Positions 1,447-26,653 are shown, counted from the stretch's first letter. The stretch is DNA of 32,000 nt from Geobacter sulfurreducens PCA (GCF_000007985.2 NC_002939.5:3180001-3212000), one strand, 5' to 3'. The notes: generated by a model from the letters alone, not told the origin. Program-made: numbers and translations.

Positions 1447-2487
1447 TCAGTAACTGCCGGCCGCCTCCAGCAGCTTCGCGATTCCGTCCATCCCCCTGGC
1501 CCGGGCCACGTCCAGGGCCGACTTTCCGTCAGCGGTCCGGACAGAGACATCCGCCTTGCGCTCCAGCAACGCCCTGACGATTTCCTCGTTACCCTCGGCA
1601 ACGGCAATCAGCAGGGCGGTGACGCCGTGCCTGTTCCGGACAGCAACGTCCGCCCCGGCATCGATCAGGAACCGTGCGATATCAGTCCGGTTTTGAGCCA
1701 GGGCAAACATGAGCGCGGTATCCCCGTCCCTGTGCACCGCATTGATGTCGGCCTTTGCTCCCACCAGGAATTTCACCACCGCCAGGTGGCCGTTCATGGC
1801 GGCCGCCATCAGCGGCGTGACATCCTCGACATTGCTGTTGTTGAGGTAGGCCCCACGCCCTGCCAGGTACCTGACGATCTCCGGATGTCCGTTGTGGGCC
1901 GCGATCCAGAGCGCATTGACGGCCATACTGTTCAGATAGTTCACCCAGGCACCATTGGCAACCAGCAGCTTCACCGTATCCAGGCTCCCCGCCATGGTCG
2001 CCACCATCAGGGGAGAGACCCCGTCAATGGTGCCGCCCTCGGTTCTGTCGACGCTTTCGGTGTAGTTCACATCCGCCCGGGCCCGGATCAGCTTCCGCAC
2101 CCCGGCCGCGTTTCCCGCCATGGCCGCGTCAAAGAGCTCGCCGTTGACGGAGCGTTTCGACGTGCTGCTGACGATCTCGTCCCCCTTGAAGACGATTTCA
2201 TAGAAACCGTCGCGGGTTAAGCCCCGTTCGCGGCAGTTGCGGTAGTCGCCGCGATAGGTGGTGGTCGCGCCCCGCCTGACGATCGAAACCCTTCTGGTCC
2301 CGCCGTCGCCGCAACGCACGGTCTTGCCGCTGTTTCTGCGTACCGTGTCGTGCCCCCCCAGATCGACGATCATGTCCGTCATGAGCTTCGTGGTCGCTTC
2401 CTGCTCGTATTCATAGGCACGGACATCCGCGGGGAGGCCCAGCGCCACCGCGGCACCGGCGGTCGCCAGCACTAGTCTCGTTATCAT
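1447..2487 (-). CDS. Ankyrin-repeat protein with N-terminal signal peptide (346 aa)
   Basis: Six to seven ANK repeats (e.g. GVTALLIAVAEGNEEIVRALLERKADVSVRT; GDTALMFALAQNRTDIARFLIDAGADV). Start placed at Met62 of the 407-aa ORF (ATG at 2487): GGAGAAGGGA SD, then MITRLVLATAGAAVALGLPADVRA. The longer form would overlap the small ORF and hairpin at 2571-2686. Confidence 0.85.
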   Translation of the reverse strand: MITRLVLATAGAAVALGLPADVRAYEYEQEATTKLMTDMIVDLGGHDTVRRNSGKTVRCGDGGTRRVSIVRRGATTTYRGDYRNCRERGLTRDGFYEIVFKGDEIVSSTSKRSVNGELFDAAMAGNAAGVRKLIRARADVNYTESVDRTEGGTIDGVSPLMVATMAGSLDTVKLLVANGAWVNYLNSMAVNALWIAAHNGHPEIVRYLAGRGAYLNNSNVEDVTPLMAAAMNGHLAVVKFLVGAKADINAVHRDGDTALMFALAQNRTDIARFLIDAGADVAVRNRHGVTALLIAVAEGNEEIVRALLERKADVSVRTADGKSALDVARARGMDGIAKLLEAAGSY

Positions 2488-2570
2488 TCCCTTCTCCTGA
2501 ATCGCGCCGCGTGGGGCCGCAGCCGCAGCGCCCTCTCCCGGCCCGCCGCCCCCATGCTGCTGCAAACAAA

Positions 2571-2602
2571 GAGAGGTGGGGCGCCCTGCAGCCTCACCTC
2601 TC
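2571..2602 (-). terminator. Rho-independent terminator/attenuator-like hairpin after small ORF B
   Basis: Minus strand: GAGAGGTG-aGGC-tgcagggc-GCC-c-CACCTCTC followed by TTTGTTTGC. It begins 21 nt after the TAG of the 20-codon ORF. Confidence 0.6.
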
Positions 2603-2623
2603 CGTGCTCGGGCCGGCTGTCGA

Positions 2624-2686
2624 CTAACAGGGATGCACGTTGGCGGAGCCGACGATCCGCGGTTTGACATAGCTGCGCTTTTTCAT
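2624..2686 (-). CDS. Small ORF B, 20 aa: MKKRSYVKPRIVGSANVHPC (unlisted; paralog of 26591-26653)
   Basis: ATG AAA AAG CGC AGC TAT GTC AAA CCG CGG ATC GTC GGC TCC GCC AAC GTG CAT CCC TGT TAG, translated by hand. GAAAGGA SD-like element 9 nt upstream. 15/20 residues identical to ORF A, with many synonymous codon differences. Followed by a hairpin. Confidence 0.7.
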   Translation of the reverse strand: MKKRSYVKPRIVGSANVHPC

Positions 2687-11150: not shown

Positions 11151-11194
11151 AAAATCCCTCGTGTGGCGTAGATGGCGGAAAGTCTATTGCATGG

Positions 11195-14134: not shown

Positions 14135-14218
14135 GACGACCCTCCGCCTCTTTCCGCAGGAGTACCCGACAACTGACAATTCTTGCAGCCCCTTAACGGC
14201 CCGCTGTCGCCTTATCAC

Positions 14219-14528
14219 CGACCAGCAAGCATAACAAATATTAATTATTACAGACTAATTCAGCGTGAAATCGGTTAACCGTTTGATATTTCTAACCCTA
14301 CCGTTTTAATACAATATGAAATGTCAAAATCACTAACTGTTATTTCACTGCGTCAATAAGCAAAGCAAAAACCGAGCCTTTTATCCCGGAGATCCCTGTG
14401 AAATGGCATATACACTCATGTGGTGAAAAGTCAGTCGCAGACAGTCATTGTTACATTTGAGAAAAAAAAGGAACAACACCGGAGGGATGCGCCTCAGAAC
14501 ACTACAAAAACACTCAAATAATCGGCTG
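14219..14528 (-). promoter_or_regulatory. AT-rich intergenic region: probable promoter/regulatory region of the 979-aa + 2803-aa cytochrome block
   Basis: Hand count gives 112 G+C in 300 nt (14221-14520), about 37 percent, against clearly GC-rich flanks. It lies between the 3' end of the YedE-like gene and the 5' end of the cytochrome gene. Contains the perfect palindrome CGGTTAACCG (14272-14281) and several TGAAAT/ATTTCA words. No promoter hexamers could be assigned with confidence. Confidence 0.5.
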
Positions 14529-15599
14529 TCAGGCGGTACGGGCCCGCCAGAAAAGGCAGGCGGCGAGAACAGCGGCGAATCCCGCCAGAAGGGCGGCCTT
14601 GCCGGCAAGGGAAACGCCGGCTGCCGTGGCGGCAATGCCCCACGACTGGACCAGGGCGCCGCCGATGAGCATCCCCACCACCACGAGCCCCGCATCGGCG
14701 TCCCCCTCGCCCGCCTTGATGAGCTGGCGGAAGGGGCAGCCGCCGATGAGGACGGAAATCCACCCCACGAGCCCCATGCCGAGGAAGCTCCAGAGGTGCT
14801 CCGGATGGGCGCCGGGCTGGCCGTGGAGACCGGGGTTGAATCTGCCGAAGGCTACGTTGGCGGCCACCGCCGCAGCCAGAAAGGCCACCACACCCCAGAG
14901 GGCCGGGGTCCGTCTGCCCATGATGAACGCATCACGGATGCTGCCGGTTATGCAGAAGCGGCTCCGCTGGGCCATGGCGCCGAGCAGCGCGCCGGCGCCC
15001 AGGGCAAGGGGAACGGGAGCGTGCTGTGCCGCGCTCCCCTGGCCGGAAAAGATGATGAAACCGGGGCGAACGAGAAGAAAGACCAGGAGCAGGAGAAAGA
15101 AGGCCGGGATCAGCGGGCCGCCGTGACCAACGCCCGGTGACGGGTGCCCCGGCTCCACCCCGTTGGCGAGCCCCCGGAGACCGGCCCAGACCCCGGCGAC
15201 CAGCCCCACGACGCCGGCAACGGCGGTCAGGTCGCCGGCAGCCAGGCGCAGGAAGAGCTTGATGGGGCAGCCGATGAAGATGGCACAGCCGACAATGAGG
15301 AACACTCCCGCAACGAGGCGCGGCAGGGGGGCGCCCCCGCCGCGGGAGCGGAACTCGCGAAAGAGCAGTGCGCTGGCCGCGGCGCCGAGCACGAAGCCGA
15401 TCAGTTCAGGCCGCAGGTACTGCATGCGGGGGTTGTCGTGCATCCCCAGGGCCCCGGCGCTGTTCTCCATGAAGCAGGAAACGCAGATTCCCGAGTTCTC
15501 CGGATTACCCCAGACCGCCAGAAGCGCACCGAGGCCGCCGAGGAAAAGCCCCGCCGCCACCACCATCCAGAAATGCCGATCCCGCAGCACTACTCGCAC
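14529..15599 (-). CDS. YedE/YeeE-family membrane protein (putative sulfur/selenium compound transporter)
   Basis: Polytopic and Gly/Ala/Leu-rich. Family-typical motifs GNPENSGICVSCF, RSRFCITGSIRD and GGCPFRQL. The ORF-track start at 15599 is GTG. A GTG at 15590 (TAGTG overlap with the upstream stop, GGGAGG 9 nt upstream) and an ATG at 15566 are alternatives. Confidence 0.75.
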   Translation of the reverse strand: MRVVLRDRHFWMVVAAGLFLGGLGALLAVWGNPENSGICVSCFMENSAGALGMHDNPRMQYLRPELIGFVLGAAASALLFREFRSRGGGAPLPRLVAGVFLIVGCAIFIGCPIKLFLRLAAGDLTAVAGVVGLVAGVWAGLRGLANGVEPGHPSPGVGHGGPLIPAFFLLLLVFLLVRPGFIIFSGQGSAAQHAPVPLALGAGALLGAMAQRSRFCITGSIRDAFIMGRRTPALWGVVAFLAAAVAANVAFGRFNPGLHGQPGAHPEHLWSFLGMGLVGWISVLIGGCPFRQLIKAGEGDADAGLVVVGMLIGGALVQSWGIAATAAGVSLAGKAALLAGFAAVLAACLFWRARTA

Positions 15600-16129
15600 C
15601 CTCCCGCCAGCCGACTCTTCAGGTAGTTGACCTTGCGCAGGGACGCCGCCAGGCTCCGGTTGCCAGGGTTGGCGGCTGCCCGGCCGCCGATGCCCGCCAG
15701 CCCCTCGACCACCAGGCCCTCGATGGCGCGGCGCCGTGACAGGGGGCTCTGTGCGTCCACGTAATCGCCATTGAGCCTGACCCCTTCCTCAAAGGAAGCC
15801 ACGGCCTCGTCCAGTGCCCCCATCTTCCGGAGGATCTCCCCCCTGAGGATGTAGCCGTGGGCCTCGCCGGGGTAGCTTCGGATCAGCTCGTTCAGCCTCA
15901 GGAGGGCTTCCTGGTCGTTGCCGGCCGTGCGCAACTCCTCCACCGGCCCATAGAGCCTGGCGATCAGCTCGACGCGGGCGCGATAGGCCATCTCACGCTC
16001 CACGGCCTTGCCGAGGCCCGCGGCCCTGCCTGCTCCTGCCCCGTGATTCGTTGCAAGAACACCGGCCAGAGCCGCAATGACGACGGCCAGGAGCAGCCAG
16101 GTTATTTTGTCGAAGGTGTCGGTGAACAT
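15590..16129 (-). CDS. Membrane-anchored TPR-repeat protein (179 aa from ATG at 16129)
   Basis: Met36 of the 214-aa ORF gives MFTDTFDKITWLLLAVVIAALAGVLA as a TM anchor. TPR-like helices follow (DQEALLRLNELIRSYPGEAHGYILRGEILRKMGALDEAVASFEEGVRLNGDY). The start lies 22 nt after the upstream stop. Confidence 0.6.
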   Translation of the reverse strand: MFTDTFDKITWLLLAVVIAALAGVLATNHGAGAGRAAGLGKAVEREMAYRARVELIARLYGPVEELRTAGNDQEALLRLNELIRSYPGEAHGYILRGEILRKMGALDEAVASFEEGVRLNGDYVDAQSPLSRRRAIEGLVVEGLAGIGGRAAANPGNRSLAASLRKVNYLKSRLAGGCE

Positions 16130-16151: not shown

Positions 16152-17057
16152 TCAGTACGTCTGATATGGCGGCATATTGACACGCTTCGCCATTTCACGG
16201 ATAAGGTCGTAATCGCTGTCCAGCAGATCTTCATAGCCGTCGATCCAGGCGGCCTTCAGCACCTTGAGCCGCTCCCCGTCCACCTCGGCGGTGTCGCCGG
16301 GCTTCAGGGCCAGGAGGGCGTCCTTCACCTTCTTCACCAGGGCCGGATCGGTTCCCTTGGCCACGGCAAAGGTGCAGTAGGGGATCGGCTTGCTCTGGGC
16401 GAGGATGACGAAGTCGTCCGCCGAGATCTTTCCTTCCTGTGCCATGGTTTCCAGGTCGAGGACCGGCGCGGCGGCCACGTCATACTTGCCGTGCAGGACG
16501 CCGTAGATGAGTTTTTCGTGCTTGAAGGAGCCCGAGGGGATGGAATAGGTCCCCAGGTCGTGCTCCGGGTTGATGCCGGCCGAGAGCATCAGGTCGTACT
16601 CGGCCAGGTAGCCGGTGGGAGCCAGCATGGGGCCGAAGGCCAGCCTCTTCCCCCGGATGTGGTCGAGTGTTTCGATGCCGCTCCCCTTGCGGGCGATGAG
16701 GGCGCCCGCGGAACGGGAGCCGAAGGTGCCGCGCTTTTCCGATGCCACCAGCTCGACGCCGTGGTTCTCCCGCAGGATGACGTAGATCAGGGAGTTGGTG
16801 TGGGTAAAGGTGAACTCGCCGGACTTGAACCGTTTCTCGAAATCGTGGGTATCCACCGGCACCGCCACGAAGTCGACCCCGCACCTGTCGGACAGATAGC
16901 GGGTGAGTGGGAGGAAGCGGGACATGGTCTCCTGCTCGTTGTTGCAGAGCATGTAGCCGATCTTCACCACGGGCCGGGCCCCCTCGGGCTTGCAGCCGGC
17001 AAGGAAGGCGGCAAAGAGGGCCAGCATGAAACATCGCGTCAGGGTCGAAAAATTCAT
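16152..17057 (-). CDS. PhnD-like (phosphonate-binding fold) periplasmic substrate-binding lipoprotein, 301 aa
   Basis: Start at Met66 of the 366-aa ORF (ATG at 17057), giving MNFSTLTRCFMLALFAAFLAGC with a LAGC lipobox. The body resembles the PhnD/phosphonate-bd family (VKIGYM...FTHTNSLIYV...GKRLAFG...TGYL...GKYDVAA). Confidence 0.75.
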   Translation of the reverse strand: MNFSTLTRCFMLALFAAFLAGCKPEGARPVVKIGYMLCNNEQETMSRFLPLTRYLSDRCGVDFVAVPVDTHDFEKRFKSGEFTFTHTNSLIYVILRENHGVELVASEKRGTFGSRSAGALIARKGSGIETLDHIRGKRLAFGPMLAPTGYLAEYDLMLSAGINPEHDLGTYSIPSGSFKHEKLIYGVLHGKYDVAAAPVLDLETMAQEGKISADDFVILAQSKPIPYCTFAVAKGTDPALVKKVKDALLALKPGDTAEVDGERLKVLKAAWIDGYEDLLDSDYDLIREMAKRVNMPPYQTY

Positions 17058-17094: not shown

Positions 17095-17964
17095 CTACCA
17101 GCACGAGGGGTCTTCACCCTCAAGGGATTGATGCATGACGTATGCCCTGCCGCGGCATCCCCCCCGGCATTCCGCCAGCTCGCCGCAGGCACCGCAGGCG
17201 CGGGGATGCTCCAGGAGCCGGCGCCGGAGGGCCTTTTTCGCTTCCGAGGCAATGAGCTCCTGCAGGGGCATCTCGCCCGCGGTGCCGAGCCTCACCGGCA
17301 GGGTGGGACAGGGATAGACACCGCCGTCGGGGGCGATGGCGATCATGGTGTTGGCCGCCTGGCATCCCCCCTGGGGAAAGGGTACGCCGGGGTTGAAGGC
17401 CCGCCAGAGGAACGGATCGTGAATGGTCAGGGCAAGGCGCTGGGCGCCGCCTTCGGCGTCCAGGGCGTTCGCCAGCTCCCGCTGTTCGTTCATGGTGAGG
17501 AAGAACGGGGGCTCGCCTCCGTACAGGCGTTGCATGGGGAGGACGAGCCGGGTGATCCCCCGGTCGAGACAGTAATGCACAAGGGTCGGGAGTTCGCGCC
17601 AGTTCCCGTGGGTCACCGCATAGGATACGCCGGCGGACGGCTCGTCCTGCCACTCCCCGGAGTCGAGCAGATCGGCATGGTCCACGTCAAGGAGCAGCTC
17701 CCGCACCGCCCCGTGGGCAACAAGGGCCCGGACGGTATCGTCATGGGCCTGCGGGGGGATCGTGAGGGTAACGGCGGCCGGGCCGCCCCGGAACCGCTCC
17801 AGCACTTCGCCGAGCCAGCCGGGAGAGGTTGGCGCGGTGCTCGTTACATTCAGCATGAGGGGCCGGCAGTCGATGATCCCGGCGGCGATCGCCAGCAGGA
17901 GCGACGGATCGGCCGCGGTAGCGGGGAGATCCCAGTAGATGGTTATGGGAGACGAAAGTTCCAT
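17095..17964 (-). CDS. SPASM-domain protein lacking the radical SAM CxxxCxxC motif (GeoRSP-like SPASM protein)
   Basis: The C-terminus has the full SPASM signature: CQAANTMIAIAPDGGVYPC (C-x12-G-x4-C), CGACGELAECRGGC (CxxCx5Cx3C) and a final DPSCW. The N-terminus ITIYWDLPATAAD aligns with LTINWAINNTCNFACRHC of the neighbouring radical SAM enzyme but has no Cys triad. Confidence 0.8.
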   Translation of the reverse strand: MELSSPITIYWDLPATAADPSLLLAIAAGIIDCRPLMLNVTSTAPTSPGWLGEVLERFRGGPAAVTLTIPPQAHDDTVRALVAHGAVRELLLDVDHADLLDSGEWQDEPSAGVSYAVTHGNWRELPTLVHYCLDRGITRLVLPMQRLYGGEPPFFLTMNEQRELANALDAEGGAQRLALTIHDPFLWRAFNPGVPFPQGGCQAANTMIAIAPDGGVYPCPTLPVRLGTAGEMPLQELIASEAKKALRRRLLEHPRACGACGELAECRGGCRGRAYVMHQSLEGEDPSCW

Positions 17965-17968
17965 AGAA

Positions 17969-19090
17969 TCATGCCCAGCAGTGGGGGTCGGGACTGTTAA
18001 GGTCGCCGGTGAGGGCCAGGGCCCGGGCGGAGCAGCCGCCGAGGCAGTCCTCGTACGCGCTGCAGCCGGCGCACTTGCCGGTGGGCTTCTTGGTACGCAG
18101 CGCCGCCAGTACTGCCGAGTCCCGCCAGACCTGCTTCAGGTCGTCCCGCACGATGTTGCCGATGACAACGGGAATGAAGCCGCAGGGGGTCATGTCGCCG
18201 TTGGTCTTGATGTTCAGGGAGAGCTTGCCGCAGACGCTACCCTTCACGAGGCTCCCCGCATCGCGGGCTCCCAGGAGGGCGATGATCGGGTCGTCCAGGG
18301 AGACGTCGAGCCCCGACTCCCGCTCCCTGGCGGCCAGGGCGCCCCGGTAGAACTCCCGCCACTCGGCGGGCGAAAGGTCCAGTTCATCCCTGTGGGACAG
18401 ACCCAGCCCCGAGCACTTGAAATTGTGGAAGTTGAGCTGTCCCACCCCCTGCTCCCGGGCAAAGGTCACCAGATCGTCGATGGCCGTGTGATTGATCCGG
18501 CAGATCACCGTGGAGATAGAGGTGGCGATGCCCGCCCCGGCCAGATGCCGCAGGGCAGCCACGGCCCGGCCGTGGCTGCCGTCAACGCCGCGGAACCGGT
18601 CGTGGACCCGGGGGAGGTGGCTGTCGATGCTGATACCCACCCTGGTGAACCCGGCGTCCCGCAGGGCCGCCGCCGTGTCCCGGTCAATGAGCCAGCCGTT
18701 GCTGTTCAGGGAAATCCGCAATCCCGACCCGCTGGCGTGCCGGGCGATCTCCAGCAGCCCCGGGTGCAGGAGGGGTTCCCCGCCGCCGAAATTGACGGAA
18801 AAGACCCCGGCAGCGGCCGCCTTTCCCAGGCATGCCAGAAGGACGTCCCGGGGGAGTTCCTCGTGGGTGTCCCCCCGGCTGTAGCAGTGGCGGCAGGCGA
18901 AGTTGCAGGTGTTGTTGATGGCCCAGTTGATGGTGAGGGGCGCTTCCAGTGACGGCGCGTCCGCTCGGCTGGCAGCGGTGGCCTCATCGCCGGCTCCCCG
19001 GCGTATCGCCGGATGCGCCTGCGTTGCCTCCCCTGTGCCGCCGCGCTCGCCACGCGAACTCACCGTCGCGGTTTCCCTGTCATTCTGCAT
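17969..19090 (-). CDS. Radical SAM/SPASM-domain peptide-modifying enzyme (GeoRSP-like), 373 aa
   Basis: CNFACRHC radical SAM cluster motif, GGGEPLL SAM-binding motif and a SPASM signature (CGKLSLNIKTNGDMTPC; CAGCSAYEDCLGGC; DPHCWA). Start set at the ATG at 19090 (Met86 of the 458-aa ORF), overlapping the PqqD stop by 11 nt. The first ~55 aa are low complexity, so the true start may be further in. Confidence 0.9.
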   Translation of the reverse strand: MQNDRETATVSSRGERGGTGEATQAHPAIRRGAGDEATAASRADAPSLEAPLTINWAINNTCNFACRHCYSRGDTHEELPRDVLLACLGKAAAAGVFSVNFGGGEPLLHPGLLEIARHASGSGLRISLNSNGWLIDRDTAAALRDAGFTRVGISIDSHLPRVHDRFRGVDGSHGRAVAALRHLAGAGIATSISTVICRINHTAIDDLVTFAREQGVGQLNFHNFKCSGLGLSHRDELDLSPAEWREFYRGALAARERESGLDVSLDDPIIALLGARDAGSLVKGSVCGKLSLNIKTNGDMTPCGFIPVVIGNIVRDDLKQVWRDSAVLAALRTKKPTGKCAGCSAYEDCLGGCSARALALTGDLNSPDPHCWA

Positions 19091-19394
19091 AGCGGATAAA
19101 TCCCTTGACGGCCAGTTCGTCCAGGAATGCCTGGACATCTTCCCGCAGCACCGCCTCGTCCACCTCGAACTGGGGGAGCAGCTCCGCCACGATGCCCTCC
19201 GGGGTCCGGCCGTCACAGAGCTTCCAGATTTCAGTGCCGAGATAGTTGAGGGAGAGCATGGTCCCACCGGAGAACAGGACCGAGGTGCCGGTCTCCTCCA
19301 CCGCCTCGCCCCGGTCCAGGGCCTCCAGGACCCGGGCCAGGGCATCGGCCTCCTCGCGCCACATGACGTCGGGGTTGCGATGAATCGTCTTCAC
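19080..19394 (-). CDS. PqqD-family peptide chaperone (RiPP recognition element)
   Basis: Typical PqqD-family pattern: HRNPDVMWREE...LNYLGTEIWKLCDGRTPEGIVAELLPQFEVDEAVLREDVQAFLDELAVKGFI. I prefer the GTG at 19394 (AAGGAAGG SD 8 nt upstream). The ORF-track start, a GTG at 19418, is the alternative. Confidence 0.8.
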   Translation of the reverse strand: MKTIHRNPDVMWREEADALARVLEALDRGEAVEETGTSVLFSGGTMLSLNYLGTEIWKLCDGRTPEGIVAELLPQFEVDEAVLREDVQAFLDELAVKGFIRYAE

Positions 19395-19438
19395 GTTTCT
19401 TACCTTCCTTGCTCTCACAATCCGTTGTTGTGAATGCC

Positions 19439-19759
19439 CTAATCCCCCTGCGCCGTTATGGAGGCAATGACCAGATTCTCCTGGGAAGCGTTGCGGATGC
19501 CGTGGTCCTCGAACGCGGGAACGATCACGATCTGCCCCGTGGTGATGGACTGGGTCTTGCCGCCGGACTGGAACTGGCCGGTACCCTCCATGACCATCCA
19601 GATATGGCTGCCGTGGTGGGTGTGGGTCACGATCTCCTGGCCGGGCTTCATGCAGATGAGGCTCACCCGGGCGTGATCATCGGACCAGATGGTTTCCTGG
19701 TGACGTTTTTCATCGTTGAACGTTTTGAGGGTCTGGACGTCGAGCACCTGTGATTTCAT
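19439..19759 (-). CDS. Cupin-domain protein, 106 aa
   Basis: Cupin motif 1-like GQEIVTHTHHGSHIWMVMEG and motif 2-like GQIVIVPAFEDHGIRN. AGGAGG SD 5 nt before the ATG. Confidence 0.75.
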   Translation of the reverse strand: MKSQVLDVQTLKTFNDEKRHQETIWSDDHARVSLICMKPGQEIVTHTHHGSHIWMVMEGTGQFQSGGKTQSITTGQIVIVPAFEDHGIRNASQENLVIASITAQGD

Positions 19760-19818: not shown

Positions 19819-21654
19819 TCAGGCCTTCCTGACAAGCTTCAGAACAGAGCCGAGCCACGCGGAGGCCCGGTTGAAGACGGATGAGGCGGTGGAAACCCGC
19901 ACCTCCCCGCCCGTGTCGGCGACACCGGAGAAGGTCACCCCGTAACGGGAAGCGAAGAGGTTGGCCCCGCGGAAATCCGCTGCGCCGGCTGACGGCAGCG
20001 GCACGACCAGGGCGGCGCCTCCCCGGGCGTTATGGTCCGCCAGGAGTTTCGCCTCGGCATCGCTGAGCCCGGCGGCGCCGTCATCGCCGCAGAAGAGCCA
20101 GACCTGGCCCCACTCCGCCAGCAGCCCTCCGGTGAGGCGCGGCACCTCGCGCCGGTCCACCGTCTTCACGGTGAAGCCCCGCGCCGCGAGTTCGGCCAAG
20201 ACCTTCTCCCCCAGCAGCACCGCGGCACCGCCGGCACCGTCCCCGAGGCGGCAGACGAGGATTCTGGTGGAGGCGGCCGAGAGGGAATTCTCTTCGAGCC
20301 AGTCGGCGATGTTGCCGATGTAGGCCCCGGTGTCGTAGCGGTCGGCCATGGCTGCGGTGAACCGTCCGTACGTCCCGTCGAACACGACCCCCCCCCGCCC
20401 GTCCACGGCATTGGTGTAGGTGGCGACGGTCCCCTTGCCGGCGGGGTCCATCACCATCCGCACGTTGGGATCGTGCTTCAGGACCACGGCGGATGTGCCG
20501 CCGGACAACGACGCGACCCCCCGCAGGAGAGGATTGCCCACATCCACGCCCGGCACGAACACCAGGAGCCGGAAGGCGTAAGCAATCAGGAGCGTCCCCG
20601 AAAGGCAGGCGAACATGTAGAGGAAGAAGACCCGCTTCTTGAAAAAGGTCCAGAAGAGCACCATGGTGGGCACCGCGGTCACCGGTCCGCCGATCATGAA
20701 CGCAAGGGCCGCCCCGGCGTCCATGGTCCCGCCCAGGGCTCCCTTGATATGGTAGACGATGCTGGACGCGCTGATCTGGTGCAGGAACATTGGTACCGAC
20801 GCCAGGGTCACCCAGACGATGTTCAGGGGATCCGTCCGGCCGAAGAAGCGGTAAATCCACTCCTTGGGCAGGTAGCGCTCCACCACCGCGCCGATGACCA
20901 CCCCCACGATGACGTACTTCCCCACCACCCAGACCATCTCCGCGGACTTGGCCAGGAAGATGAGGAACTTGTTGCCGGTCCTGACGGCGACCCGGTTGCC
21001 GAATTTCCGCCGGCAGTTGCACCGCAGCCGCTCGTCCGGGTAGTCCTCGTCGTGGAAATCGCCCCGCACGATCCCCCCTTCGACGAAGATCTCGTTCTTC
21101 CGGAAACCGGGCCGCTTGCTGAGGGCAAGGGTCACCAGCCCGGCGAAGATCCCCATGGAGAAGGCGGAGATGGTCCTGACCACGGTCCACTCGGGACCCA
21201 GGTCGTTCAGGGTAAGGAGATAGGTTGACGGGCTCAACAGCGGCGAGGTCACCATCAGGGCCATGACCGGCGCCAGGGGAATCCCCGCCACCAGGAGGCT
21301 GATGGCGGTGGTCACCGTGCCGCAGGCGCACAGGGGGGTGATGATCCCCACGAAGGACGCGAGAAAGACGCTCAGGGCCCCGTACTTTCTGAGGGATGCC
21401 TGGAGTTTCACGGCAACCTTGAAGGTCCGGAGGTAGCCGGCAATGAGAATGCCCACGATGAAATAGGGCAGCACGTCACGGAGCTCGGCCATTACCCCGT
21501 GGTCGCTGAAAAACAGGTCCCAGAGCTCGCTGCCGAGCAGCACGGGGAACGAAACCGGCGCGGCATCGGAGGAGACCAGGTGCCCGCCGGTGCCCGTGCC
21601 CCACACGTGCCAGACCACTAGGGACAACGAGATCAGAACCATGACGATCAGCAT
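19819..21654 (-). CDS. Predicted permease (DUF318/ArsP-type, PLCACG motif) fused to a ~230-aa C-terminal soluble domain of unknown function
   Basis: Multiple TM segments with ITPLCACGTVTTAISL, typical of the 'predicted permease' family. The C-terminal third (from about DPAGKGTVATYTN) is non-hydrophobic and matches nothing I recognise. Start at the ATG at 21654 (Met27); the GTG at 21732 is the alternative. Confidence 0.7.
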   Translation of the reverse strand: MLIVMVLISLSLVVWHVWGTGTGGHLVSSDAAPVSFPVLLGSELWDLFFSDHGVMAELRDVLPYFIVGILIAGYLRTFKVAVKLQASLRKYGALSVFLASFVGIITPLCACGTVTTAISLLVAGIPLAPVMALMVTSPLLSPSTYLLTLNDLGPEWTVVRTISAFSMGIFAGLVTLALSKRPGFRKNEIFVEGGIVRGDFHDEDYPDERLRCNCRRKFGNRVAVRTGNKFLIFLAKSAEMVWVVGKYVIVGVVIGAVVERYLPKEWIYRFFGRTDPLNIVWVTLASVPMFLHQISASSIVYHIKGALGGTMDAGAALAFMIGGPVTAVPTMVLFWTFFKKRVFFLYMFACLSGTLLIAYAFRLLVFVPGVDVGNPLLRGVASLSGGTSAVVLKHDPNVRMVMDPAGKGTVATYTNAVDGRGGVVFDGTYGRFTAAMADRYDTGAYIGNIADWLEENSLSAASTRILVCRLGDGAGGAAVLLGEKVLAELAARGFTVKTVDRREVPRLTGGLLAEWGQVWLFCGDDGAAGLSDAEAKLLADHNARGGAALVVPLPSAGAADFRGANLFASRYGVTFSGVADTGGEVRVSTASSVFNRASAWLGSVLKLVRKA

Positions 21655-21772
21655 CCGGTTCCCCGACTCAGCCTGGTGTCCGTGGACCTCGCAGGCCTCC
21701 CTCGGTTTTGCCCTGAACGGATTCACGAGCACGATACCCTGCCCGTGCCGGCTGTTCCGATGCCGGAGATAT

Positions 21773-22681
21773 TCATTGTTTCCTCCTCAACCGCCTGGCG
21801 CACGCCAGTACCGCACCGAGCCCCACCATGGCGAACCCGGCGAAAACACACGGCCTCCCCGGGTCCCTGACCACCTGAATACCAGCAAAAGACATGCCCA
21901 TCGCATCCGTACCGACCTGGGTGTTGTAGAAATAGAGGCCGTTCCAGATGAAGGGGGCGTTCACCTCGGCCGTACCCTCCGCTATGGCAACGCCATCGCG
22001 GCTCAAGGCCAGGTCGACCCAGAGCCGCTTCAGGACCGGATTTTGAAACGCCACCAGCCTGAAGTCGTAGGGGAACTCGGCGGGGAGGCTGCGTTCTCCC
22101 GAGGTATCGCAGGTGCCGACGAGCTGCCCGTTGCGAAAAACCGAGAGCCTGAGGACCTCCGAGGGAAACTGGAGGGAATCCGCCGTCACGCGATAGGGCC
22201 CCGCCGTGAAGCTGTCACCGGTCTTCAGAGTGTGGAGCGCCTCCTTCGCGCTGCCCCTGAGGACCCCCACCCTGACCGGAATCGGGTAAAACTCCCGATT
22301 GATCCGCGTGACCGTCAGGTCGGCACCGAGGGGAGCGTCCCGCTCCAGGTCCCACCGGTAGGCCTGGTCAACAGAGGTTCCCTCGTAGACGTTGACGGTC
22401 GCCACGTGGCCGAACGTCCGGGCCGCAACGCCCCCGCAGATTACCAGCACGCCCAGATGCAGAATCAGCACCGGCACCGAAAGGGACCGGAACCGGCGCA
22501 GCGTGCAGCAGACGAGATTCAGCGCCACTCCCGCCAGCAGGCAGAGAAACGCCGGATGGGCGTAGAGAGCCCTGGTCCCGGCGAACGTGCCGGGGATCGC
22601 CGCCACGGCAACGATCAGGAACAGGGCCACCGCCAGTTCCATGGAAGCCAGGAACCGGCCTATCCGTTTCAGTAGAGTCAC
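21773..22681 (-). CDS. ResB/Ccs1-like cytochrome c biogenesis (System II) protein, short form, 302 aa
   Basis: The N-terminus RIGRFLASMELAVALFLIVAVAAIPGT matches the conserved ResB start (..S.KLA..L......SI.GT). Two N-terminal TMs, a periplasmic beta-rich middle and a C-terminal TM. No CcsA/ResC (WWD) partner is present in the window. Confidence 0.7.
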   Translation of the reverse strand: MTLLKRIGRFLASMELAVALFLIVAVAAIPGTFAGTRALYAHPAFLCLLAGVALNLVCCTLRRFRSLSVPVLILHLGVLVICGGVAARTFGHVATVNVYEGTSVDQAYRWDLERDAPLGADLTVTRINREFYPIPVRVGVLRGSAKEALHTLKTGDSFTAGPYRVTADSLQFPSEVLRLSVFRNGQLVGTCDTSGERSLPAEFPYDFRLVAFQNPVLKRLWVDLALSRDGVAIAEGTAEVNAPFIWNGLYFYNTQVGTDAMGMSFAGIQVVRDPGRPCVFAGFAMVGLGAVLACARRLRRKQ

Positions 22682-22700: not shown

Positions 22701-23258
22701 TCAGATCAGTTTTTTCGACTTCAGGAAGTCTCTGACCGCTTTTCTGGACTTGTCGCCGGCGTCCGCCGACTTCAGCAGCCGGGCGTAGGCGTCGTTGGTG
22801 AGCACCCCGGAGAGCTTGGCCAGCAGCTTGGGCAGGGCCGGGTAGTTGTTCAGAGTTTCCACCGTCAGGACGGGAGCATACGAGGGCGTGCCGCCGAAGG
22901 GCTCAAGCCAGGCAAGGTTCAGGGTTGAACGATAGCCGCTCTTGATCGCCTCCCGTGCCGCCCCGTCACCCGCCTTCGGTTTACCCAGCACCTCCAGCGC
23001 GCGCTCGGGGGTTTCCACGAGCAGGTTGACGTCGCCCTTTTTCACGGCACCGTAGAGCTCCCGGCTGTCCCGGTAGACCTGGACCTTCACCGCGGTGCCG
23101 GTCCGCTCGGTGATGAGCAGGGACATCATTTCCGCCAGCAATCTCTCCTGGGGCGTGTTGGGAACGCCGATGTGGAGGGTCCTGCCGACACAGGCCCCTG
23201 CCAGGTGCGCACCCACGAGAACCGAAACCGCAACAATGCAGCAAATAAGCTTTTTCAT
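22701..23258 (-). CDS. Small secreted/lipoprotein-like substrate-binding-domain protein (OpuAC/glycine-betaine-binding-like), 185 aa
   Basis: Signal peptide MKKLICCIVAVSVLVGAHLAGAC. LHIGVPNTPQERLLAEMMSLLITERTG...LYGAVKKGDVNLLVE resembles the N-terminal lobe of OpuAC-type binding proteins. Assignment is tentative. Confidence 0.4.
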   Translation of the reverse strand: MKKLICCIVAVSVLVGAHLAGACVGRTLHIGVPNTPQERLLAEMMSLLITERTGTAVKVQVYRDSRELYGAVKKGDVNLLVETPERALEVLGKPKAGDGAAREAIKSGYRSTLNLAWLEPFGGTPSYAPVLTVETLNNYPALPKLLAKLSGVLTNDAYARLLKSADAGDKSRKAVRDFLKSKKLI

Positions 23259-23330: not shown

Positions 23331-24020
23331 TCAGTCTGGCCCCAGCCCCACGTCCAGGGCACTATCCGCTGTGCCCGGGGAAGGTACGAATTCCGCCGAG
23401 GCGCGCCATGTGGACGGCGGAAACCGCCTGGAGCTCCCCACGTACTGCTTGTGGCCCGCGGGGACGATGAGGGTGTATCGGCCGTCCGCCCCCGTCCAGG
23501 CCGAGATGTAGTCGGGCATGCGGCTGTTGTCGCTGGTGGCCGACGCAAACACAAAGGCATTGGCCACCGGGTTCCCGTCGCCGTCCAGAACCCGTCCCGC
23601 CAGCTTCACGAAATCTGCGACCAAGGGCCGGCGCATGCGCCCCAGGTCCCGGATATCGGCTACCGTAAAGTCCTGCTCGATCTCGGCATCCGCGGTCAGG
23701 TCCATGACGGCCGGTTCCCCCGAGTGCTTGTCGCCCGGCATGAGCGGACCGTATGATTCGTCCAGCTTGAGCCGCGCCACCACCCAGTAGGTTCCCGGCG
23801 GCACCCTGACGGCCGTGGTGCCGTCCCCGGCCGACGGCGGTGAGATGAAGGTTGCGGGCCGCCGGACATGGGCCGAGTCATAGACAAAGAGCTTCACCCC
23901 TGCCATGGGCTTGCCGTCCACGTCCGTCACCCGGCCCCTGAGGACCGCCGCATCCGCAGCGCCGGCCAGGAAGCCGGTGAGCGCCAGCCAGAGTGTCGCC
24001 CGGAGCGCCGCTCCCCTCAT
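23331..24020 (-). CDS. Secreted protein with two carboxypeptidase-regulatory-like (CarboxypepD_reg) beta-sandwich domains, 229 aa
   Basis: Signal peptide, then two copies of the (L)xGRVxDxDGxPxAxxxVF... pattern (LRGRVTDVDGKPMAGVKLFVY; LAGRVLDGDGNPVANAFVFA). The start overlaps the upstream stop as ATGA (24017-24020). Confidence 0.55.
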   Translation of the reverse strand: MRGAALRATLWLALTGFLAGAADAAVLRGRVTDVDGKPMAGVKLFVYDSAHVRRPATFISPPSAGDGTTAVRVPPGTYWVVARLKLDESYGPLMPGDKHSGEPAVMDLTADAEIEQDFTVADIRDLGRMRRPLVADFVKLAGRVLDGDGNPVANAFVFASATSDNSRMPDYISAWTGADGRYTLIVPAGHKQYVGSSRRFPPSTWRASAEFVPSPGTADSALDVGLGPD

Positions 24021-26518
24021 GGCGTCCCTCCGTTTGCCGGCCCAACCGGGCCCGGCTTGTCCAGCCAGGGCTCGTAGAGGACCATGCCGATGCCCGGCTC
24101 CTGGCGGCCGTCAAAGATCGTCCCGCCCGGATCCCCCTCGCCCCACCAGTTGCCCCGGGCGTTCACGTCCTGGTCGTTGAAATCGCCGATCCGCATGTTG
24201 TAGCCGCTGTTGCCCACGAGACTGTTGCCCGTCACCGTCAGCCCGCCCCCCTTCTCCCGCACGAAGATCCCCGTTTCATTCGCCGTGATCAGGTTCTCCG
24301 CGATGAGGGCGTTGCCGATGTACGAGCGGATGCCGATGGTGTTGTCCCGAAAGATCGAGCGGCGGATCCGGACCGGGCCGCTTCTGAAGCGCATGCCGCC
24401 GTAATTGTGCCGAATCAGGCAATCGGTGACGGCGAGATCCGTGAAATGACTGTGAATGCCCCAGGTGGCGTACTCGACGATGCAGTTGGAGATGACGCTT
24501 CCCGTGGCGTATTCCAGCAGGATTTCGTTCCAGTCGGAGGGCCCTTTGCGGTCGACTGAGGTGAACCGGATCGTGCCGTCCCGTTGTCCCGATGCAAGGA
24601 GCTTGCCCTTGATCTCAAGGCCGGTGCCGGCGGCGAACTGCACCGTTGTTCCCGGGGCAACGGTCAGGGCCGCGCCGGGGAGTACCGTCGTGGGGACGGC
24701 CACGGTGATGACGCCGCGCCAGACCGTATCGGCGGCCACGGTCGCCAGCGGCCAGACAAAGGGGGTGGGAGCGGCCCCCGGCCGGCCGTAATCGACACGC
24801 CCCAGCCGCGGATCGTCCCGCTGGTCGTTGATCACCAGGGCCGGGTCCCGTCCCCCCCACCAGTTGCCGGGGGCGGAAACATCGCCGCTACCGTCCAGAT
24901 CGATGGCATAGAGACCGTTCCCGGCGAAATTGTTGCCGCTGATGATCCCGGCAAAGGACAGGATTCCCATCCCCCGTTCGCCGTTGTCGGCAATCAGGTT
25001 CCCCGTGATCAGGGAGCCGGAATCCTGGATGTTGAAGCCGCTCAGGCCGTTGGCCGTCACCGCGTTGCCTGCGAACTCGACAGAGTCGACGTTTTTCAGG
25101 GAGATGCCCGTTTCGGCGTTGCCGGAGATGCTGTTGCGGTTGACCTCGCCGTGGTAGAGATCGGCCGCCATGAGGCCGAACCGGTTGCCGTCGAACAGGT
25201 TCTCCCTGACCGTTACCGCTCCTTCGCGCAGGCGGAGCCCTTCCCTGCCGTTGGCCACGATCCTGTTCCCGCGGACCGTGAGGGTGGTGCGGAAGAAATT
25301 CCCTCCCACCTGGTTGCCGCAGAGCAGGTTGTCCACCAGTTCAACCTCAGAATCGCGCCCCTGAACCCCGCTCTTATTGCCGCAAAGGGTGTTGCCGTGC
25401 AAGGCCACCACCGACTCCTGGAACTGGATGCCGCGGTAATTGTTCGTGAGGGTGGTGTTGTGGATCGCCACCGTGGAGAAGTGGAAGTGAAGTCCCCGGT
25501 AGGCGTGCTCAATCCGGCAGTGTTCCACCAGGTTCTGGCCTGCCGAGCTGTTCATGATGTTGACGGCATCCCAGTCGCCCATGCGCCGGTCCTTTTCGGC
25601 GGAACGGAAGGTGATGGGCCGGTCGGGAGTCCCCTTGGCCAAAAGGCGCCCCTGGATCATGATCCCGTTTTCGCCGATGCCGTCGCCGTTGGTGTCCCGC
25701 CGGGTAAACTCGACGATCGTTCCCGGCAGGATGACCAGGCGGCTCCCCTCCGGCACCCTCACCGTGCCGTCCACCAGGATTCTCCCCTGCCACAGGGTCT
25801 CGCCCAGCAGGACCATGTCCTGGTACCGGCGGCTGACCGGCGCCTCCTCGTTGACCGGCGGCCCCTTCGGCAGGGTGTGGGGCCGGACCGCTGCCGTGTG
25901 GGCGTCTTTCTTCCGGTTGCGGGCCACCTCGGTGGCATGGGCGGTCACCCGGGCACCCTGAAGGGATAGGACGCCGTAATCGTTCTCGATGATCCTCGCC
26001 CCCTCCACCGTGATCCGCGACGCTGCCCCCTGCGCCACCAGGCCGTACCGGTTTTCCCGAAGCGTCGACGAGGAGAGATGCAGCGTCCCCTCCGCCACGG
26101 AGATCCCGCTGTCGGCGTCGGCGACCAGGCATTCCCTGATGGCGGCGGTGCCGCCGTCGATGAGGATTCCCGCCCAGCTTCCCGCCCTCTTCTCCTGGCC
26201 GGAAAACCGGACCGGAGCCGTCACGGTGCCCTCAACCGCCAGCCTCCCCCGGATGGTTATCTCCGTGAGGGGCGAGAGATATTCGGGGTCGGTCTTGGTG
26301 CTTTCCGCGGCCGCGACCGTGACGACGGTGCCGGCCCGGACGGTCAGGGTGACCCCCTCGGGCACGACGACGTCTTCCGTGACCGTGACGTTCCCCTGCC
26401 AGACCGTATCGGACGTTATCACCCCGGCGATCGCGCCGGCGGGGAGGCCGAACAGCAGGGCGGACAGCAGCGTCAGGGAAAGGGCGGCGATTCTGGCGAG
26501 CGACATGGGTTCGAGCAT
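24017..26518 (-). CDS. Secreted right-handed parallel beta-helix repeat protein (NosD/CASH-like), 833 aa, three internal modules
   Basis: Signal peptide (LTLLSALLFGLPAGAIAG). Many PbH1-type repeats (N.I..N...GI.......I..N). The cap motif DTVW.G.(I/V)TV....V.PG..LTV.(P/A)GT.V.(F/V) occurs three times. Confidence 0.8.
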   Translation of the reverse strand: MLEPMSLARIAALSLTLLSALLFGLPAGAIAGVITSDTVWQGNVTVTEDVVVPEGVTLTVRAGTVVTVAAAESTKTDPEYLSPLTEITIRGRLAVEGTVTAPVRFSGQEKRAGSWAGILIDGGTAAIRECLVADADSGISVAEGTLHLSSSTLRENRYGLVAQGAASRITVEGARIIENDYGVLSLQGARVTAHATEVARNRKKDAHTAAVRPHTLPKGPPVNEEAPVSRRYQDMVLLGETLWQGRILVDGTVRVPEGSRLVILPGTIVEFTRRDTNGDGIGENGIMIQGRLLAKGTPDRPITFRSAEKDRRMGDWDAVNIMNSSAGQNLVEHCRIEHAYRGLHFHFSTVAIHNTTLTNNYRGIQFQESVVALHGNTLCGNKSGVQGRDSEVELVDNLLCGNQVGGNFFRTTLTVRGNRIVANGREGLRLREGAVTVRENLFDGNRFGLMAADLYHGEVNRNSISGNAETGISLKNVDSVEFAGNAVTANGLSGFNIQDSGSLITGNLIADNGERGMGILSFAGIISGNNFAGNGLYAIDLDGSGDVSAPGNWWGGRDPALVINDQRDDPRLGRVDYGRPGAAPTPFVWPLATVAADTVWRGVITVAVPTTVLPGAALTVAPGTTVQFAAGTGLEIKGKLLASGQRDGTIRFTSVDRKGPSDWNEILLEYATGSVISNCIVEYATWGIHSHFTDLAVTDCLIRHNYGGMRFRSGPVRIRRSIFRDNTIGIRSYIGNALIAENLITANETGIFVREKGGGLTVTGNSLVGNSGYNMRIGDFNDQDVNARGNWWGEGDPGGTIFDGRQEPGIGMVLYEPWLDKPGPVGPANGGTP

Positions 26519-26533
26519 AGTCTCACAAAAAGC

Positions 26534-26571
26534 AAAAGAGGTGCCGACGAATACGGTTCGGCACCTCTTTT
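26534..26571 (-). terminator. Strong rho-independent terminator/attenuator hairpin after small ORF A
   Basis: Perfect 14-bp stem AAAAGAGGTGCCGA / TCGGCACCTCTTTT (26534-26547 pairs with 26558-26571) and a 10-nt loop. On the minus strand it is followed by GCTTTTTGTG. It starts 19 nt after the TGA of ORF A and ends 15 nt before the ATG of the beta-helix gene. Confidence 0.75.
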
Positions 26572-26590: not shown

Positions 26591-26653
26591 TCAGCAGGGA
26601 TGAACCACTGCGCTCCCGACAACCCTCGGACGAATATAGCTTTTTTTCTTCAC
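26591..26653 (-). CDS. Small ORF A, 20 aa: MKKKSYIRPRVVGSAVVHPC (GTG start; hidden as the tail of the 91-aa track ORF)
   Basis: AAGGAGGA (26661-26668) lies 7 nt upstream of GTG AAG AAA AAA AGC TAT ATT CGT CCG AGG GTT GTC GGG AGC GCA GTG GTT CAT CCC TGC TGA. A paralog with the same length and the same start and stop positions lies at 2624-2686. Followed by a perfect hairpin. Confidence 0.7.
   Translation of the reverse strand: MKKKSYIRPRVVGSAVVHPC

Follow-up and report, generated by a model that had tools for sequence, protein, structure and literature searches.

The GeoRSP cassette of Geobacter sulfurreducens lies in a conserved 12-gene block, with a family of 20-residue peptides as candidate substrates

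In the biosynthesis of pyrroloquinoline quinone (PQQ), the precursor gene pqqA is at the 5′ end and is followed by a hairpin, which gives much precursor and little enzyme. In the radical S-adenosylmethionine (SAM) enzymes SuiB and CteB, the recognition domain is fused to the enzyme. The GeoRSP system is already known as a named trio of protein families, made up of a PqqD-family peptide chaperone, a radical SAM/SPASM enzyme and a SPASM-domain protein in which the SAM cluster is missing. Here, we describe such a trio in a 32,000-nucleotide stretch of the genome of Geobacter sulfurreducens PCA (NC_002939.5:3180001-3212000; this whole stretch is called the window, and positions are counted from its first letter). 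To the trio we add a fixed 12-gene context and a link to a family of 20-residue peptides (20-mers), which are candidate precursors of a RiPP (a peptide that is ribosomally synthesised and then modified after translation).

A previous reading of this DNA, made from the sequence alone, knew of no assigned GeoRSP substrate, and in the literature searched no substrate, product or wider gene context is described for the family. The search gave nothing relevant on GeoRSP, TIGR04302-04, GSU2897, GSU3618, GSU2900 or GSU2903-GSU2911; the G. metallireducens genome paper contains nothing on the topic, and the GeoRSP genes are not listed in two omics supplements.

The GeoRSP trio

The three genes are adjacent and co-directional, and their order is the same in all loci holding all three.

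19080..19418, minus strand: PqqD-family peptide chaperone (RiPP recognition element; TIGR04302, Pfam PqqD)
17969..19090, minus strand: radical SAM/SPASM enzyme, 373 residues (TIGR04303, motifs, exact protein match)
17095..17964, minus strand: SPASM protein without the SAM cluster, 289 residues (TIGR04304; AAR36296)

The assignment was made with the NCBIfam/TIGRFAMs equivalog models TIGR04302, TIGR04303 and TIGR04304 at their curated cut-offs. The PqqD protein scores 173.4 bits with TIGR04302 (cut-off 100), and 68.7 bits with Pfam PqqD; the radical SAM enzyme scores 668.7 bits with TIGR04303 (cut-off 400) and the SPASM-only protein 511.7 bits with TIGR04304 (cut-off 300). Outside families (AhbD, NirJ2, MftC, PqqE and others) give the radical SAM enzyme 106–165 bits, far under their cut-offs of 265–650. 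A database protein identical to it is called 'GeoRSP system radical SAM/SPASM protein [Geobacter sulfurreducens]' (AAR36297 family; the locus tag GSU2905 was assigned via the accession offset), and the RefSeq names of both the radical SAM and the SPASM proteins (AAR36297 cluster, AAR36296) begin with 'GeoRSP system'. The trio is a member of the known GeoRSP family, an identity that the sequence-only reading had suggested and that the hidden Markov model (HMM) check has now borne out.

The radical SAM motif of the enzyme is C62-x3-C66-x2-C69 and its seven SPASM cysteines are residues 287, 303, 340, 343, 349, 353 and 371. In the SPASM-only protein the CxxxCxxC motif is absent from all 289 residues; its seven SPASM cysteines, at positions 201, 219, 257, 260, 266, 270 and 288, are invariant across 69 homologues. 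The PqqD stop codon (19082-19080) and the radical SAM ATG (19090-19088) give an 11-nt overlap, and 4 nt (ttct) separate the radical SAM stop from the SPASM ATG, so that the open reading frames (ORFs) and junction sequences agree with the three coupled genes, motifs, overlap and gap described before. Residues 1–47 of the radical SAM enzyme contain a low-complexity N-terminal extension of about 40 residues, rich in Gly, Ala, Thr and Arg, which is neither present in the 332-residue G. metallireducens orthologue nor covered by the family model.

The longest PqqD reading frame starts at GTG 19418 and encodes 112 residues. An alternative GTG at 19394, with a Shine-Dalgarno site, AAGGAAGG, just upstream, gives 104 residues. 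Orthologues from G. metallireducens, G. pickeringii and G. benzoatilyticus are 104–105 residues long, the TIGR04302 match starts at residue 10 of the long form, and the 112-residue form has no entry in the protein collection searched. The Shine-Dalgarno site, the orthologue length and the start of the HMM match make GTG 19394 probably the true start.

The AlphaFold2 model of the SPASM-only protein has a predicted local distance difference test score (pLDDT) of 89, and Foldseek aligns it over its full length with SuiB, anSME, PqqE, CteB, TigE and SkfB, with template modelling (TM) scores of about 0.6–0.7. With its radical SAM neighbour it shares 25% identity over 185 residues, covering the last barrel strands and the SPASM domain. 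Judged by its modelled fold, the protein is a radical SAM paralogue with a degenerate barrel, in which the SAM cluster has been lost and the two auxiliary clusters retained. A homologue search gave 521 matches at E ≤ 1e-10, and all the named ones are from Geobacteraceae or close relatives.

The cassette had been called an orphan, which does not hold. A scan of species-representative genomes gave 30 GeoRSP loci, and tblastn comparison with the window proteins shows one 12-gene block, constant in order wherever the flanking sequence reaches, in which the trio occupies positions 7–9. The statement that no small ORF lies beside the cassette does stand: the flanking spacers of 20–60 nt contain none, and no other small ORF is conserved in or next to the cassette in the window and the GeoRSP loci.

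A family of 20-residue peptides

The two 20-mers of the window are found where they had been reported, 7.2 kb upstream (GSU3618) and 14.4 kb downstream (GSU2897) of the cassette and on the same strand.

26591..26653, minus strand: type A 20-mer (GSU3618), V/MKKKSYIRPRVVGSAVVHPC, GTG start, TGA stop; exact match to 'hypothetical protein GSU3618'
2624..2686, minus strand: type B 20-mer (GSU2897), MKKRSYVKPRIVGSANVHPC, TAG stop; exact match to 'hypothetical protein GSU2897'

GSU3618 has the Shine-Dalgarno site AAAGGAGG, and 72 nt separate it from the first block gene downstream. GSU2897 follows omcN (GSU2898) at a distance of 53 nt and precedes an ankyrin-repeat gene by 137 nt; its UniRef entry covers two Geobacter records with the same sequence and is named after G. 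metallireducens. A pattern search of the window and the 30 GeoRSP loci, followed by a search with an HMM built from the matches, gave 17 copies at E ≤ 1e-8, the next match being at E 1.1; GSU3618 itself matches the family HMM at E 2.5e-12, with a noise floor of E ~1. In all, 77 copies were collected, with the consensus MKKxxYxKPRIVGSAxVHPC. In 16 copies, the entropy at codon positions 1, 2 and 3 is 0.39, 0.45 and 1.45 bits, and the flanks are unconserved except for a GGAGG-type Shine-Dalgarno site; such a site is present in 70 of the 77 copies. The codon-position signature and the Shine-Dalgarno site show, on sequence grounds, that the 20-mers are a real, translated micro-gene family.

In an alignment of 14 sequences, M1, K2, Y6, P9, V12, A15, V17, P19 and C20 are invariant, with G13 and H18 nearly so. 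Type A peptides (...G[SN]AVVHPC) are usual before the block and type B peptides (...GSA[ND]VHPC) elsewhere. The G. benzoatilyticus lineage (L003:1505-1567, L083 and L094:1406-1468) has Gln instead of His18 (…VVQPC); there is thus no strict requirement for the His, a point that matters for any chemistry suggested at the HPC tail. An NCBIfam scan of both window peptides at E ≤ 10 gave no family, ruling out that they are a 'geopeptide' or another modelled precursor, and neither GSU3618 nor GSU2897 has a signal sequence.

Linkage to the block was assessed from the enzymes and from the peptides. Upstream sequence was available for 29 GeoRSP loci (the window, 24 genome loci and four loci found by exact protein look-up), and in 13 of these a 20-mer gene is present 70–190 nt upstream of the beta-helix gene that opens the block, on the same strand. 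The 13 comprise the window, L001 (G. hydrogenophilus), L003, L006 (Geobacter sp. AOG1), L007, L011 (Geomobilimonas luticola), L019, L020, L023, L030, L091 (G. metallireducens, where the 20-residue gene has already been called), L093 (G. pickeringii) and L094 (G. benzoatilyticus). In L010 and L013 a copy is found within 10 kb, bringing the total to 15 of 29. A metagenome scan seeded with the peptide yielded 60 loci, six of them with the beta-helix gene directly downstream of the copy. Eight copies had at least 9 kb on both sides, and five of the eight have GeoRSP within 10 kb; about 0.04 of eight would be expected by chance, a 20-kb span being about 0.5% of a genome of about 3.8 Mb.

In G. pickeringii, the gene 5′ of the peptide is an unrelated LuxE homologue; in that species the peptide travels with the block and not with a cytochrome. 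In L020, L030 and L081, nothing co-directional precedes the peptide; its gene there opens the transcription unit of the block and is not the end of a cytochrome operon.

Both window copies are followed by a stable hairpin (MFE, minimum free energy).

26526..26571, minus strand: G+C-rich hairpin and T-tract after the type A gene; MFE −31.4 kcal/mol, z −7.8
2564..2603, minus strand: hairpin and T-rich tail after the type B gene; MFE −33.9 kcal/mol

Over the 77 copies, the 75 nt 3′ of the stop codon are far more structured than shuffled sequences (mean z −4.4). The hairpins are G+C-rich and differ in sequence from copy to copy, with T-rich tails in the copies inspected. A terminator scanner calls equivalent terminators in L093 and L020, where the loop is short enough; a consensus terminator scan missed the window hairpin, the loop of which is longer than 8 nt, and no promoter was found. 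The T-tract of the type A copy ends 8 nt before the beta-helix ATG (26518), and in L093 the terminator ends 18–28 nt before the first start codon of the block. In neither case is there room for a promoter in between, so that transcription of the block has to pass through the peptide gene and the hairpin behind it.

Proposed maturation and rival explanations

The presence of a PqqD-type recognition protein leads one to expect a peptide substrate for GeoRSP. Among solved structures, the GeoRSP PqqD protein has its closest relative in TbiB1 (5v1u/5v1v, E 2.7e-5), a discrete lasso-peptide recognition protein solved together with its leader peptide. Discrete lasso-type recognition proteins bind the leader motif [Y/W]xxPx[L/V/I/F/A], the YxxP part of which is needed for complex formation (PMC13381572). 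In the 20-mers, Y6 and P9 never vary and residue 11 is either I or V, so that Y6-x-x-P9-x-[I/V]11 fits this motif exactly. As the motif fits, a division of the peptide may be proposed into a leader of residues 1–13 and a core of the seven residues [S/N]-A-x-V-H-P-C.

We consider the chances about even that GeoRSP matures the MKKxxYxKPRIVGSAxVHPC 20-mers in the manner of a RiPP system. The 20-mer genes are translated, as the codon signature and the Shine-Dalgarno site show on sequence grounds, and the discrete PqqD protein would bind the N-terminal part of the peptide through Y6-x-x-P9-x-[I/V]11, as the motif of its closest structural relatives suggests. It would then present the C-terminal A-x-V-H-P-C to the CxxxCxxC radical SAM/SPASM enzyme. 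Hydrogen abstraction by this enzyme may lead to a crosslink or a C-terminal modification, most likely at the thiol of the terminal Cys, which could form a thioether or undergo an MftC-like C-terminal modification. The SPASM-only protein, to judge from its modelled fold, might serve as a non-catalytic partner, either a scaffold or an electron relay. With the type A copy as the 5′ gene of the block and a leaky terminator behind it, much precursor and little enzyme would be made. The rest of the block, going by its domain content and names, may export, bind or re-import the product or a ligand carried by it (metal, sulfur or selenium).

The proposal of the 20-mers as substrates, already made in the sequence-only reading, thus gains a conserved translated family, 13 loci out of 29 in which a copy directly precedes the block, GeoRSP near five of eight peptide-seeded copies and a lasso-type leader motif. 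Several observations weigh against it. Fourteen of the 29 GeoRSP loci have no copy within 10 kb, among them a contig with a Geotalea uraniireducens protein, Pelotalea chapellei and most loci with an FmdE insertion (see below). Hidden, divergent peptides do not account for these loci, as an HMM search of all their short ORFs gave none; upstream of the block, they have unrelated genes, which look like those for CrcB and DUF190 or like a sulfatase-modifying-like gene, or else a CarboxypepD_reg gene that no peptide accompanies. What is linked is the 12-gene block as a whole, which is never split, and the linkage cannot be assigned to the three GeoRSP genes. The motif match is short, and by a rough estimate about 0.7% of random 20-mers would contain it. 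A short conserved ORF and a terminator right before an operon are also the signature of a regulatory leader. Most peptide copies lie away from GeoRSP, where they follow OmcN-like giant cytochromes, precede ankyrin genes or adjoin CarboxypepD_reg genes, and in one transcriptome omcO and GSU2899 are significantly changed, with zero block genes listed.

These other contexts recur. The module of OmcN-like giant cytochrome, 20-mer and ankyrin gene, exemplified in the window by GSU2898-GSU2897, is found again in metagenome loci; the ankyrin-repeat protein after the type B peptide has a signal-like N-terminus (window 1447-2487, minus strand; L031, L033, L057, L072 and L074). In many loci, secreted CarboxypepD_reg proteins of 260–290 residues are encoded directly before or after a 20-mer (for instance L006:329-1189); they form a family distantly paralogous (22–28% identity) to the 229-residue protein of the block, and L062 has three tandem copies of this secreted family. 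With these recurrent contexts, the 20-mer family marks a broader network of neighbouring secreted proteins, in which the GeoRSP block is one conserved node. The peptide is not always tied to a cytochrome: among 58 copies with enough flank, the upstream ORF is not a cytochrome in 33 and is lacking in three.

The 20-mers might instead be cis-acting regulatory leader (arrest) peptides, translation of which controls read-through of the terminator, with the GeoRSP substrate to be sought elsewhere; the genes tuned in this way would be the NosD-to-YedE block, the ankyrin and CarboxypepD_reg genes and some cytochrome genes. A short ORF with an intrinsic terminator does stand upstream of an operon, as in an attenuator. 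A stable hairpin follows each copy, the window and L093 leave no promoter room before the next start, and copies precede several different operons. Stop-to-hairpin distances range from 1 to 44 nt, and their median of 14 nt would in about half of the copies be near enough for interference by a stalled ribosome; the window type A copy, at 19 nt, is past the footprint of a terminating ribosome. The 20-mers are conserved in amino-acid sequence over their whole length, as is typical of arrest peptides such as TnaC and SpeFL. However, no antiterminator was found: pairing of the ORF with the 5′ arm of the terminator is no better than that of shuffled ORFs (mean z −0.28, with 3% of copies below −2). 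Without an antiterminator and with such variable spacing, classical attenuation is not supported. Most copies, moreover, lie 53–190 nt after a co-directional gene and look like last cistrons, and a terminator behind the precursor gene is equally usual in RiPP and PQQ operons. A purely regulatory role would also leave the GeoRSP peptide chaperone without a candidate substrate. We therefore regard the leader-peptide explanation as weakened and unlikely; leader and precursor roles could coexist.

That the 20-mers are unmodified small proteins, working independently of GeoRSP with OmcN/OmcO-type giant CxxxxCH cytochromes or secreted partners, seems decidedly improbable. Their adjacency to the block would then reflect a shared regulon or neighbourhood alone. 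The commonest peptide-seeded context, with an OmcN-like cytochrome immediately ahead of the copy and an ankyrin gene behind it, would agree with this, as would the CarboxypepD_reg proteins beside many copies and the dedicated ResB/CcsA pairs in the same neighbourhoods; but the 20-mer has no signal sequence and these neighbours are secreted or periplasmic, no co-directional cytochrome precedes the block copy in G. pickeringii, L020, L030 or L081, and most GeoRSP loci lack a large cytochrome ORF within 10 kb of the block. It is quite unlikely, too, that GeoRSP acts on a segment of a block protein or of a cytochrome, or on a tetrapyrrole, rather than on a free short peptide. The best scores of the radical SAM enzyme outside GeoRSP are with AhbD (165 bits), NirJ2 (163 bits) and MftC (161.5 bits), of which AhbD and NirJ are haem-modifying, and ResB-like and cytochrome genes are neighbours; these scores are, however, far under the cut-offs of 265–500 bits, and the PqqD family binds peptides. 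We know of no PqqD partner for the haem-modifying radical SAM enzymes, and the fold relatives of the SPASM-only partner are mostly peptide maturases, plus the protein-modifying anSME.

The 12-gene block and comparison with known systems

Apart from the trio, the block contains the following genes.

24017..26518, minus strand: gene 1 (GSU2911), secreted right-handed beta-helix/NosD-like protein, 833 residues (Pfam Beta_helix, NosD)
23331..24020, minus strand: gene 2, CarboxypepD_reg (transthyretin-like) domain protein, 229 residues (Pfam; synteny)
22701..23258, minus strand: gene 3, OpuAC-like half substrate-binding lipoprotein, 185 residues (Pfam OpuAC; named 'lipoprotein'; synteny)
21773..22681, minus strand: gene 4, short ResB-like membrane protein, 302 residues (Pfam ResB, C-terminal match only; synteny)
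19819..21732, minus strand: gene 5, ArsP-type permease, 637 residues, with a 240-residue C-terminal domain (Pfam ArsP_1, 130 bits)
19439..19759, minus strand: gene 6, small cupin, immediately 5′ of PqqD (Pfam Cupin_2; synteny)
16152..17057, minus strand: gene 10, PhnD-type periplasmic substrate-binding lipoprotein (Pfam Phosphonate-bd, 174 bits; synteny)
15590..16129, minus strand: gene 11, membrane-anchored TPR protein, start inferred (weak TPR matches)
14529..15599, minus strand: gene 12, the last, YedE-family putative selenium/sulfur transporter (TIGR04112, 401 bits, cut-off 200; synteny)

The NosD-like first gene is syntenic in all loci with a flank extending that far, and the TPR gene is at the same position in most loci whose flank extends to it. 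The PhnD-type gene starts with MNFSTL at 17057, 37 nt 3′ of the SPASM gene. The permease scores 103 bits with the NCBIfam SO_0444 Cu/Zn efflux family, under its cut-off, and its C-terminal 240 residues have zero Pfam matches. In G. pickeringii (L093:6221-8612), a NicO-type (Ni/Co) permease, together with a TPR protein and a small NosD-like protein, takes the place of the permease and cupin; L006, L007, L010, L011, L021 and L025 give no tblastn match to ArsP or cupin at that position, and L081 has a NosD-like match there. A transport module of interchangeable type thus looks required in the block, judging by these replacements.

In about 14 loci, a gene of about 180 codons for an FmdE protein with a DksA/TraR-type zinc ribbon is inserted between the SPASM-only and PhnD-type genes (L008, at 10930-11460; L009, L012-L019, L022 and L027-L029). 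It fills the 500–600 nt spacer of these loci, which had been considered as the place of a precursor gene and is ruled out as such. In most of the lineages with the insertion, the block has no peptide copy upstream. Scans of the whole window for Rfam families and tRNAs were empty, so no riboswitch accounts for the arrangement.

Two large cytochromes of the window, of 2803 and 1046 residues, are AAR36290 and AAR36304; the labels GSU2898/omcN and GSU2912/omcO derive from the accession offset. The cytochrome-dense setting, from which the sequence-only reading had drawn the idea of a peptide-derived redox cofactor or shuttle, is a feature of part of the lineages only. These have large cytochrome ORFs within 10 kb of the block, whereas most GeoRSP loci have none, and the commonest settings of the 20-mers, beside OmcN-like cytochromes, ankyrin proteins and CarboxypepD_reg proteins, are away from GeoRSP. 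Full-length ResB and CcsA (Cytochrom_C_asm) pairs are present at L091:19417-20870, L092:13518-15794 and L094:19095-20861, where they directly adjoin either giant cytochromes of the CxxxxCH/CxxCH kind or the block at its YedE end; a possible function is that of haem lyases dedicated to the unusual CxxxxCH sites. In the window, a 310-nt gap (14219-14528) separates the YedE gene from that of the GSU2899 cytochrome, in the stretch of lowest G+C content (0.59 for 14001-15000) and without any Rfam, tRNA or 20-mer match, which may be the promoter region of a GSU2899-omcN-GSU2897 operon.

Taken furthest, the proposal would make the 20-mers precursors of a hitherto undescribed peptide-derived cofactor, electron shuttle or metal- or chalcogen-binding peptide, made by GeoRSP with its active radical SAM enzyme and pseudo-radical SAM/SPASM partner, handled by the NosD-to-YedE block and employed by Geobacter, along with giant OmcN/OmcO-type CxxxxCH cytochromes, for extracellular electron transfer; this extended version is doubtful. 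The more modest proposal already provides a concrete substrate candidate for GeoRSP, which is annotated (GSU3618, GSU2897) in a genetically tractable model electroactive bacterium. If true, it would define a new class of RiPP or peptide cofactor, with a 20-residue precursor, a discrete lasso-like recognition protein and a radical SAM enzyme paired with a cluster-bearing pseudo-radical SAM protein, and would connect peptide chemistry with the surroundings of the largest multihaem cytochromes of Geobacter. If the link fails, the 20-mers are a micro-gene family whose strong conservation lacks an explanation, and they might be arrest peptides of a new class.

Among known systems, attenuators and arrest peptides (TnaC, SpeFL and the leaders of amino-acid operons) share with this locus a conserved short ORF, a terminator and a promoter-less operon, but here there is no antiterminator, the spacing is variable, regulatory codon runs are lacking and many 20-mers are last cistrons. 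The haem-modifying radical SAM enzymes AhbC, AhbD and NirJ are distant, as their models give the GeoRSP enzyme 123–165 bits against cut-offs of 500–650. Mycofactocin resembles the proposed pathway in its short precursor and in the modification of the precursor C-terminus by a radical SAM/SPASM enzyme with a PqqD-type chaperone; however, the MftC model gives 161.5 bits against a cut-off of 265, the 20-mer ends in HPC where MftA ends in GVY, and Pfam and NCBIfam scans found no MftD, MftE or MftF in the block. The likeness to PQQ biosynthesis lies in a precursor of about 20–25 residues, a discrete PqqD chaperone and a radical SAM/SPASM enzyme, and PqqE is among the best fold matches of the SPASM-only partner. 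Nevertheless, the scores are 106.5 bits with the PqqE model (cut-off 381) and 34 bits with the PqqD equivalog (cut-off 46), there is no PqqB, PqqC or PqqF among the scanned genes, the 20-mer lacks the E-x3-Y pair, and GeoRSP adds a pseudo-radical SAM/SPASM partner.

The lasso-peptide recognition proteins TbiB1, FusB1 and PbaB1, which act on YxxPxL leaders, are related through TbiB1 and through the Y-x-x-P-x-[I/V] of the 20-mer; the difference is that no B2 protease or C cyclase family is found among the scanned block proteins, and that the enzyme is a radical SAM protein. SuiB (streptide), CteB (sactipeptide), SkfB and the protein-modifying anSME have the same fold as both large GeoRSP proteins, with twin auxiliary clusters, but in GeoRSP the recognition protein is separate, and one of the two barrels is without the SAM cluster. 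With the GeoRSP family itself, the locus is the same in all tested respects, which are the three HMMs, the adjacency and order of the genes and their RefSeq names.

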